From Clostridia bacterium (GTDB lineage: Bacteria > Bacillota > Clostridia > Oscillospirales > CAG-272), in the NCBI GenBank assembly GCA_017938425.1, contig JAGBBQ010000086.1, positions 1 through 56,295 of the forward strand: 56,295 bases of DNA; not shown here. The letters run 5' to 3'. The text below continues a report on this DNA, generated by a model with database tools.

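Follow-up and report, generated by a model that had tools for sequence, protein, structure and literature searches.

Operon structure and regulatory region

A sequence-only reading of this DNA had described 14 genes (g1 to g14, in order) behind a promoter-like site and a palindrome, divergent from an RpiR-type regulator gene (rpiR), and this arrangement is borne out by the ORF list, the gap calculation and a consensus scan. Successive operon ORFs are spaced by 16, 11, -4, -11, 3, 18, 22, 20, 13, 17, 1, 16, and -4 nt. Identical DNA is also found as ENA metagenome scaffold XIEF21-1, where independent gene calls give the same 14 genes, 4 of them with slightly later starts. Pfam and NCBIfam reproduce the family assignments that the earlier reading had made for the operon genes.

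Coordinates of the operon, its regulator gene, and the associated signals
Feature	Position	Strand or region	Basis or remark
RpiR-type gene	23820-24665	minus	ORF list
14 operon ORFs, g1-g14	24817 to 41029	plus	ORF list and gap calculation
Palindrome AAATGAAAA-TAA-TTTTCATTT, putative RpiR operator	24671-24691	divergent promoter region	core found once in 56 kb
Promoter-like site	24748-24776		scan
Divergent promoter-like site	24720-24692		scan
Hairpin with T-run, -36 kcal/mol	41063-41113

The RpiR protein consists of an N-terminal HTH_6 domain (Pfam, 72 bits) and a C-terminal SIS effector domain (64 bits). The spacer that separates rpiR from the first gene has the same palindrome, of the form TGAAAAT-N1-3-ATTTTCA, in more than 20 homologous loci, often in two copies. 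An Rfam scan of the repeat region upstream of rpiR gave nothing credible. The flanks hold housekeeping genes (aromatic amino-acid biosynthesis, gpsA, and others), and no sugar transporter is found in the operon or its immediate flanks. The absence of a transporter, which had been remarked from the sequence, holds for this operon but is specific to this lineage; relatives carry transporters, and the close ones have an AEC-family transporter within the operon. A search of sequencing runs gave matches only in gut metagenome DNA, with no RNA or substrate-amended experiment among them.

A widespread core and an amino-sugar add-on

The operon is composed of an eight-gene core and a six-gene amino-sugar add-on. 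The core contains g14 (an isomerase of the AraA/FucI fold), g1 (a flavoenzyme resembling alkyl-DHAP synthase, ADPS), g2 (an Fe-S protein), g3 (a class II aldolase), g4 (a PfkB kinase), g5 (IolB), g10 (an FGGY kinase), and g13 (a fused ETF). The add-on contains g6 (a phosphomannose isomerase-like protein, PMI-like), g7 (a MurQ homolog with GKRP architecture), g8 (AGE), the two NagB-like proteins g9 and g11, and g12 (NagA).

A search with g1 returned more than 6,000 proteins at E <= 1e-30, and many g1 homologs are 82-92% identical and come from MAGs annotated as Clostridia, Bacilli, and Thermoguttaceae/Planctomycetia. Gene context was compared in 84 loci centered on g1 (80 metagenome loci included), many of them on truncated contigs, and the gene counts are lower bounds. 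The Fe-S protein g2 accompanies g1 in at least 76 of the 84 loci, g3 in at least 51, g4 and g5 in at least 47 each, g10 in at least 45, g14 in at least 37, and rpiR in at least 35. Fused g13 is found in at least 27 and split EtfB/EtfA in about 9 further loci, while NagA or NagB-like genes occur in only 3 of the 84. Relatives have additional core members, namely DUF4867 (14 loci) and a mutarotase. Two subsets travel inside the core, g14-g3-g4 and g1-g2-g10-ETF-g5, and the latter is also found by itself, once with a TRAP binding protein included in the operon and once with a LarA racemase. These two sets and the g7-g9 pair are each found separately elsewhere, and gene order varies between lineages.

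The add-on has a different distribution. A genome search with the g7 family alignment recovered 72 loci, all in uncultured MAGs, most of them Clostridia inhabiting ruminant or other herbivore hindguts, along with some Lentisphaeria/Victivallales; the nearest relative, at 94% identity, is from a water-deer rectum MAG. The main companion of g7 in these loci is the 265-aa NagB-like g9 (65-75% identical). Often a NagA-like gene, an AraC regulator, and, directly upstream, a large glycosidase-like protein are added, the last being DUF6259, GH20, or either of two Pfam-less families of ~690 aa. The rest of the operon is present in only a minority of g7 loci.

Where core and add-on meet, g14 and the amino-sugar genes are reciprocal. 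Among 46 loci with a full six-gene core, some of which are near-duplicates, g14 was present in 24 of the 29 without amino-sugar genes versus 3 of the 17 with them. This pattern suggests that NagB-like deaminase/isomerase chemistry may replace the aldose isomerase, with both branches joining at the same keto-sugar. A census of neighboring genes, which left out antisense ORFs of GC-rich loci (families 21, 22, 27, and 30), found heterogeneous CAZymes (GH30, GH4, GH20C, GH67N, GH36, GH3, GH39, GH65, and DUF6259) and three transporter types; no recurrent single transporter or glycosidase emerged from it.

These distributions bear on the composite route for an amino-sugar conjugate that the sequence-only reading had proposed. 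The operon is real, composite, and undescribed, but the oxidase/ETF set belongs to an autonomous and widespread core and not to the oxidation of a side chain.

Aldolase, kinase, and isomerase

The aldolase g3 matches the class II fold (PF01116) in Pfam with 287 bits, and the Zn-binding histidines expected of that fold are kept, H79, H82, H136, H174, and H203 being invariant in its family. Among solved structures, E. coli YdjI is the closest (206 bits, 41% identity), named L-glycero-L-galacto-octuluronate-1-phosphate aldolase in RefSeq, and next come HpSqiA (189 bits) and YaSqiA (187 bits), above AgaY and the FBP aldolases. The PDB entries of HpSqiA and YaSqiA are class II sulfofructose-1-phosphate aldolases (PMC10665668). 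FBP aldolases bind the 6-phosphate via Arg259, Ser49, and Arg280 of the partner subunit, and SqiA has Ala for Arg280 (PMC10665668). Throughout the 46 sequences of the g3 family, Arg259 (H. pylori numbering, as for Arg280) gives way to Cys231, a Cys as in YdjI, and Arg280 to Asp252. Arg280 is gone in g3 as in SqiA, but Arg236 (equivalent to R259) is gone as well, and the loop reads Y49-P-R51 instead of G-Q-K. The invariant Y49-x-R51 of the g3 family sits in the loop where SqiA binds sulfonate (the Gln51/Lys52 loop, together with His83).

The best solved relative of the kinase g4 is the sulfofructose kinase YihV (128 bits, 33% identity), with ribokinases and ketohexokinases behind, and the GxGD motif of the g4 family with its catalytic Asp (G241, G243, D244) is conserved in 47 of 47 sequences. 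YihV binds sulfonate with the triad K27-N109-R138 (PMC8006165). In g4, K27 alone of this KRN triad is kept, N109 being replaced by F or W and R138 by N or H, and a K or R is conserved two residues past the N109 position (YihV 111). The isomerase g14 has no Pfam match, and NCBIfam relates it to SftI with 87 bits against a cutoff of 700; its predicted three-domain fold is similar to L-arabinose/L-fucose isomerases (Foldseek TM 0.66-0.72) in a moderately confident model (pLDDT 65, pTM 0.73).

Judging from these residues and relatives, the aldolase and kinase are probably of the ketose-1-phosphate, acid-tail type, which goes against the resemblance to a KbaY-type bisphosphate route suggested in the earlier reading. 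The tagatose/GalNAc bisphosphate route is rejected, since the aldolase lacks both 6-phosphate arginines and the kinase lies outside the hexose-phosphate kinase branch.

Two known systems resemble this part of the operon. Sulfo-EMP and sulfo-EMP2 (with the isomerase YihS/SftI, the kinase YihV, and the aldolase YihT or class II SqiA) have the order proposed here of isomerase, ketose 1-kinase, and aldolase, leading to DHAP and an acidic C3 aldehyde; g4 is nearest to YihV, g3 is near SqiA, g14 is distantly SftI-like, DUF4867 occurs in operon relatives, and a different pocket takes the place of the canonical phosphate ligands. The operon family differs in having no sulfoquinovosidase, SLA reductase/dehydrogenase, or exporter, in its incomplete KRN triad, and in the occurrence of variants with amino-sugar genes. 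In addition, the C3 product is apparently processed on by IolB, FGGY, and the ADPS-like/ETF set, and not excreted. A tblastn search with E. coli YihO, YihP, YihQ, YihR, YihT, and YihU against about 160 loci gave zero real matches; with every other yih-type gene missing and the triad incomplete, the case for plain sulfoquinovose degradation is weakened. In the E. coli ydj cluster, too, a PfkB kinase (YdjH) stands beside a class II aldolase (YdjI, for carboxylate-ended ketose 1-phosphates), the two serving an acid-tailed ketose, and g3 is 41% identical to YdjI and has the Cys replacing the 6-phosphate Arg in common with it. However, g4 is only 25% identical to YdjH, and Zn-dependent dehydrogenases and MFS transporters belong to the ydj cluster, whereas isomerases, flavoenzyme, ETF, and amino-sugar genes do not.

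The flavoenzyme and its redox partners

Pfam places g1 in FAD_binding_4/FAD-oxidase_C. When the g1 family profile was compared with the PDB, the top match was ADPS with 187 bits over profile positions 47-472 of 474, followed by D-lactate dehydrogenase (144 bits, aligned to g1 mostly in the FAD domain), LctD (130), and glycolate oxidase (125). The invariant R265, Y394, H436, and H437 of g1 align with ADPS Arg419, Tyr578, and His616/His617; catalytic positions of ADPS are marked by the PDB mutant entries 4bc7 (R419H) and 4bca (Y578F). An AH-SH-Y motif is common to g1 and ADPS, and g1 has D435-H436-H437 (motif NDHHGVG) versus HHH in ADPS and E-H in the lactate and glycolate enzymes. JGI annotation names fragments of the g1 family "alkyldihydroxyacetonephosphate synthase."

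The likeness to ADPS/AGPS extends over the whole catalytic core of the Dictyostelium and guinea-pig enzymes, where R419, Y578, H616, and H617 all have their counterparts and the AH-SH-Y motif is retained. There are also differences. The N-terminal region of ~130-200 residues is absent, g1 starting at residue ~130 of the Dictyostelium enzyme or ~200 of the guinea-pig enzyme, and Asp replaces the first His of the HHH loop. Furthermore, the setting of g1 is a sugar operon of anaerobes, and an Fe-S protein and ETF always accompany it; this implies net redox or redox maintenance, unneeded by ADPS.

The electron-confurcating lactate dehydrogenase LctBCD and 2-hydroxyacid oxidoreductases of the GlcDEF type likewise combine a VAO-fold FAD dehydrogenase with ETF and/or an Fe-S subunit, and the cluster of one distant relative includes a LarA racemase. 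Matches of g1 to LctD (7qh2, 104-130 bits) and glycolate oxidase (105-125 bits) are below its ADPS match, though, and only the FAD domain aligns well. With the GlcD model TIGR00387, g1 reaches 187 bits (cutoff 568), and the C-terminal GEHGIG motif is not kept, its Glu being His. Function as a D-lactate or glycolate dehydrogenase is rejected on the strength of the profile alignment and the co-occurrence pattern. The partner g2 is a 4Fe-4S dicluster protein with two ferredoxin-type CxxCxxCxxxC motifs; it contains zero CCG motifs, and assignment as a CCG-domain (HdrD/GlcF) protein is unsupported. The ETF g13 is a single 456-aa chain with Pfam ETF (two stretches) and the ETF_alpha FAD domain. No precedent was found in the literature for an ADPS-like flavoenzyme coupled to Fe-S protein and ETF in a sugar operon.

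IolB, FGGY kinase, and the add-on enzymes

The isomerase g5 belongs to KduI/IolB and exceeds the cutoff of the IolB model TIGR04378 (223.8 versus 205), while the FGGY kinase g10 scores 354 with the XylB model against a cutoff of 380. An IolB-family isomerase, an IolC-like kinase of the PfkB family, and a class II aldolase of the kind that would give DHAP and an acidic aldehyde are all reminiscent of the lower myo-inositol pathway. In contrast to that pathway, IolB here moves with the flavoenzyme set and not with kinase and aldolase, the IolC model gives the operon kinase 109 bits against a cutoff of 300, and Pfam and NCBIfam found no IolG, IolE, IolD, or IolA in the operon.

Both g9 and g11 are weakly NagB-like (87 and 100 bits in NCBIfam, cutoff 237), and the catalytic Asp72, His143, and Glu148 of E. 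coli NagB are invariant in both families. We take the 6-phosphate of the NagB substrate to be bound by T41, the G-G-T loop, R172, and K208. At these positions, g9 and g11 have V for T41, a loop two residues shorter, Y, C, S, or F for R172, and Q or N for K208; the E. coli sequences were verified against the genome. These families have invariant cationic residues of their own (R117, R180, and K208 in g9). The type I PMI cupin g6 keeps all four Zn ligands of E. coli ManA (Gln97, His99, Glu134, and His255), but members linked to the cluster have Ile in the column of ManA R274, presumably a phosphate-binding residue, and TIGR00218 gives 90 bits against a cutoff of 116. The epimerase g8 is of the AGE family. 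The deacetylase g12 is above the NagA cutoff (TIGR00221, 230.6 versus 225.65) with all metal ligands and catalytic residues kept (HxH, E131, H195, H216, H251, and the catalytic D273), and the region of the NagA phosphate-binding Arg227/Tyr223 reads "NATSMHRKREQTVYAG," in which Arg and Lys are present and an insertion makes the alignment ambiguous.

The 560-aa g7 is a GKRP/MurQ-like SIS protein with the Pfam domains GKRP_SIS_N and GKRP-like_C and 136 bits in the NCBIfam MurQ model (cutoff 168). With its structural model (pLDDT 88, pTM 0.90), the top 7 Foldseek matches are full-length GKRP (TM 0.62-0.65 over about 600 columns), while the MurQ match covers only half of the protein. The predicted architecture is that of GKRP, with two fused SIS domains and a C-terminal lid. 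MurQ Glu114 (VEGAED) has its equivalent in the invariant E147, and the first SIS domain has no Glu at the position of Glu83 (SECPPT). An invariant T330-E331-R-G-P-T-F ("TERGPTF," compare "SECPPTY" in MurQ) occupies a loop of the second half that is modeled with low confidence.

A NagA-type deacetylase, NagB-fold proteins with catalytic Asp/His/Glu, a MurQ homolog, and an RpiR/MurR-type regulator are shared with GlcNAc, GalNAc, and MurNAc catabolism. Unlike in those pathways, the NagB-likes are without T41, R172, and K208, the aldolase is without bisphosphate ligands, the MurQ homolog is a fused two-SIS protein like GKRP, and both a PTS and a kinase of the NagK or MurK type are missing. A common pattern runs through the operon: sugar 6-phosphates are the usual substrates in several of these families, yet the aldolase, NagB-likes, and PMI-like protein keep their catalytic residues without the canonical phosphate ligands. 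Invariant cationic residues specific to each family are found elsewhere in the aldolase, kinase, and NagB-likes. The same kind of ligand change has been described for sulfoglycolytic versus glycolytic enzymes (PMC10665668, PMC8006165).

Proposed pathway and candidate substrates

From the observed gene content, its conservation, the nearest relatives of the enzymes, and their residue patterns, we infer the following reaction scheme as a whole. In a first stage, g14 would isomerize an aldohexose-level sugar whose distal end bears an acidic group other than phosphate, g4 would phosphorylate C1 of the ketose, and g3 would cleave the product into DHAP and an acidic 2-hydroxy-aldehyde. In a second stage, g5, known members of whose family isomerize aldehyde-acids, would convert the aldehyde to a hydroxyketone, and phosphorylation by g10 would give X-C(=O)-CH2-O-P, a DHAP look-alike that would suit an ADPS-type active site; g1 with g2 and ETF would complete the conversion. 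The add-on enzymes AGE, NagA, and the NagB-likes may carry an N-acetyl-amino sugar version to the same ketose, the 2-epimer entering via the PMI-like enzyme.

The class of substrates we tentatively favor, as a possibility well short of an even chance, is that of hexuronates and N-acetylhexosaminuronates. The acidic triose would then be tartronate semialdehyde, converted to hydroxypyruvate and 3-phosphohydroxypyruvate and reduced to 3-phosphoglycerate. Uronates are favored because they give the ETF a real redox job and the AGE and PMI-like genes a role, because YdjI and the IolB/IolC/IolJ-like families are acid-sugar enzymes, and because several operon relatives adjoin uronate-type genes. One such neighborhood combines a 446-aa GH4 protein, a binding protein, and two ABC permeases in an arrangement that we would liken to B. 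subtilis lplABCD; others contain a GH67N/DUF4838 protein, GH30, UxaC, and TRAP and AEC transporters.

A broader proposal, which we regard as doubtful in its full form, is that the core is an unrecognized, widespread anaerobic "second glycolysis" for C6-acidic sugars in which an ADPS-type flavoenzyme is used catabolically. In one version, covalent flavin catalysis by this enzyme would remove an acid leaving group such as sulfite or sulfate from a DHAP analog; in the other, the enzyme would perform ETF-coupled, possibly electron-bifurcating redox on a phospho-ketoacid. Both halves of the sugar would become triose phosphates, and the window would hold this core captured by an amino-sugar adaptor made of phosphate-blind NagB and PMI versions and a bacterial enzyme of GKRP architecture.

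The main rival, although unlikely, is a sulfo-sugar version of the same scheme. The substrate would be sulfoquinovose, a 6-O-sulfated hexose, or mucin GlcNAc-6-sulfate, and a sulfo-EMP-like split would give DHAP and sulfolactaldehyde (or glyceraldehyde-3-sulfate), from which IolB and FGGY would make a 3-sulfo DHAP analog. The flavoenzyme would then expel sulfite or sulfate by the covalent-flavin mechanism of ADPS, with water in place of the fatty alcohol, to leave a second DHAP. The ADPS reaction takes an acid leaving group off the carbon adjoining the DHAP ketone, a chemistry suited to expelling sulfite or sulfate, and the ADPS residues are conserved in g1. A sulfofructose kinase as best solved relative of g4, class II sulfofructose-phosphate aldolases in second and third rank for g3, the sulfoquinovose isomerase SftI as sole NCBIfam relative of g14, and DUF4867 (SftX) in 14 relatives (PMC11968277) are all consistent with such a route. 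Clusters with only kinase, g1/g2, ETF, and TRAP would fit import of DHPS; the nearby GH20C, sialate esterase, and GH101-like protein fit mucin; and genome matches are mostly hindgut MAGs, with the g7 family also present in Lentisphaeria/Victivallales. However, no YihQ, YihO/P, YihT, YihU, or YihR homolog is found in about 160 loci, only one of the three KRN residues is kept, and the SftI score is 87 bits against 700. A substitution reaction needs no ETF/Fe-S partner, yet one is always present; sulfoquinovose has no N-acetyl-amino analog known as a common sugar, and 6-sulfates would leave the AGE and PMI-like genes without an obvious task.

Three further readings are less likely. A neutral-sugar, fructolysis-like route, in our view distinctly unlikely, would take a free aldohexose or hexosamine through a ketohexose and its C1 phosphate to DHAP and glyceraldehyde (lactaldehyde for 6-deoxy sugars), with the second triose taken to DHAP by IolB and FGGY or by g1/g2/ETF as a glycerol-3-phosphate-type dehydrogenase. 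The loss of 6-phosphate ligands from the aldolase, NagB-likes, and PMI-like protein, the ketohexokinases among PDB matches of g4, the mutarotase and AraA/FucI-fold isomerase (which act on free sugars), the resemblance of the g1 product site to a DHAP site, and the Fe-ADH and glycyl-radical enzyme beside some relatives would all agree with it. The invariant new cationic residues (g3 R51, g4 K27 and K/R111, g9 R117/R180/K208), on the other hand, point to an anionic group, as the TRAP and AEC transporters of relatives point to an anionic substrate; the nearest characterized aldolases and kinase use acid-tailed ketoses, and for glyceraldehyde the redox complex would be superfluous.

It is improbable that the operon is not one pathway at all, with two or three unrelated functions (a sugar-1-phosphate route, an ETF-linked small-acid dehydrogenase, and amino-sugar salvage) merely under one promoter in this lineage. 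Although g14-g3-g4, g1-g2-g10-ETF-g5, and g7-g9 each occur alone elsewhere and their order is shuffled among lineages, dozens of loci from several annotated phyla have both core sets together under the same RpiR operator, and since g14 and the Nag genes are reciprocal, the parts would share an intermediate. Least probable of all is a detailed form of the route first proposed, with phosphorylation of an amino-sugar conjugate like MurNAc, of cell-wall or host origin, removal of its lactyl ether by g7, conversion by NagA/NagB to fructose-6-phosphate, and oxidation of the released D-lactate by the oxidase/Fe-S/ETF set: g7 is a MurQ homolog with E147 (E114) and a "TERGPTF" resembling "SECPPTY" in its second half, NagA is above its NCBIfam cutoff, and a VAO-fold subunit is known from lactate dehydrogenase/ETF complexes (7qh2), but the oxidase set is mostly found without MurQ-like or Nag genes, the substrate domain of g1 is ADPS-like and not LDH-like, the NagB-likes have no 6-phosphate site, g3 is no bisphosphate aldolase, no role is left for IolB, g14, and the second kinase, and g7 usually stands beside AraC regulators and large glycosidase-like proteins and not MurNAc genes.

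Novelty and implications

No characterized locus matches the operon gene for gene in the literature or in our comparisons, in keeping with the earlier claim that no described pathway uses this set. Literature searches on the gene combination, DUF6259, DUF4867, bacterial ADPS homologs, sulfoquinovose with ETF/FGGY, and sugar-6-sulfate catabolism found no description of the pathway. The largest DUF4867 similarity cluster has been reported to adjoin fucose-isomerase-family and FGGY genes, labeled "aldose/ketose metabolism" (PMC11968277), and this remark is the sole published trace of such neighborhoods that we found. The operon belongs to none of the near systems: one of three KRN residues is kept, there is no sulfoquinovosidase and no IolG, IolD, or IolE, and IolC and SftI scores are far below their cutoffs. 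In our view it would be a sugar split of the EMP kind, extended by a salvage stage without precedent and by a rare adaptor for amino sugars. The conserved operator, the split between core and add-on, and the residue signatures open the question to direct tests, whatever the substrate.

If the scheme is true, it would be the first catabolic role for an ADPS-type flavoenzyme and a new kind of ETF-linked step in sugar fermentation, and it would give context to DUF4867 and to many proteins labeled "hypothetical" or "FAD-binding oxidoreductase." The MurQ homolog with GKRP architecture bears on the origin of the vertebrate glucokinase regulator. Many uncultured gut anaerobes, from the ruminant hindgut and the human gut and from at least 3 phyla by record annotation, would share an undescribed route for an abundant acidic sugar, which could fill a gap in how fermenters without textbook pathways use uronic acids, N-acetyl-uronic acids, or sulfo-sugars.

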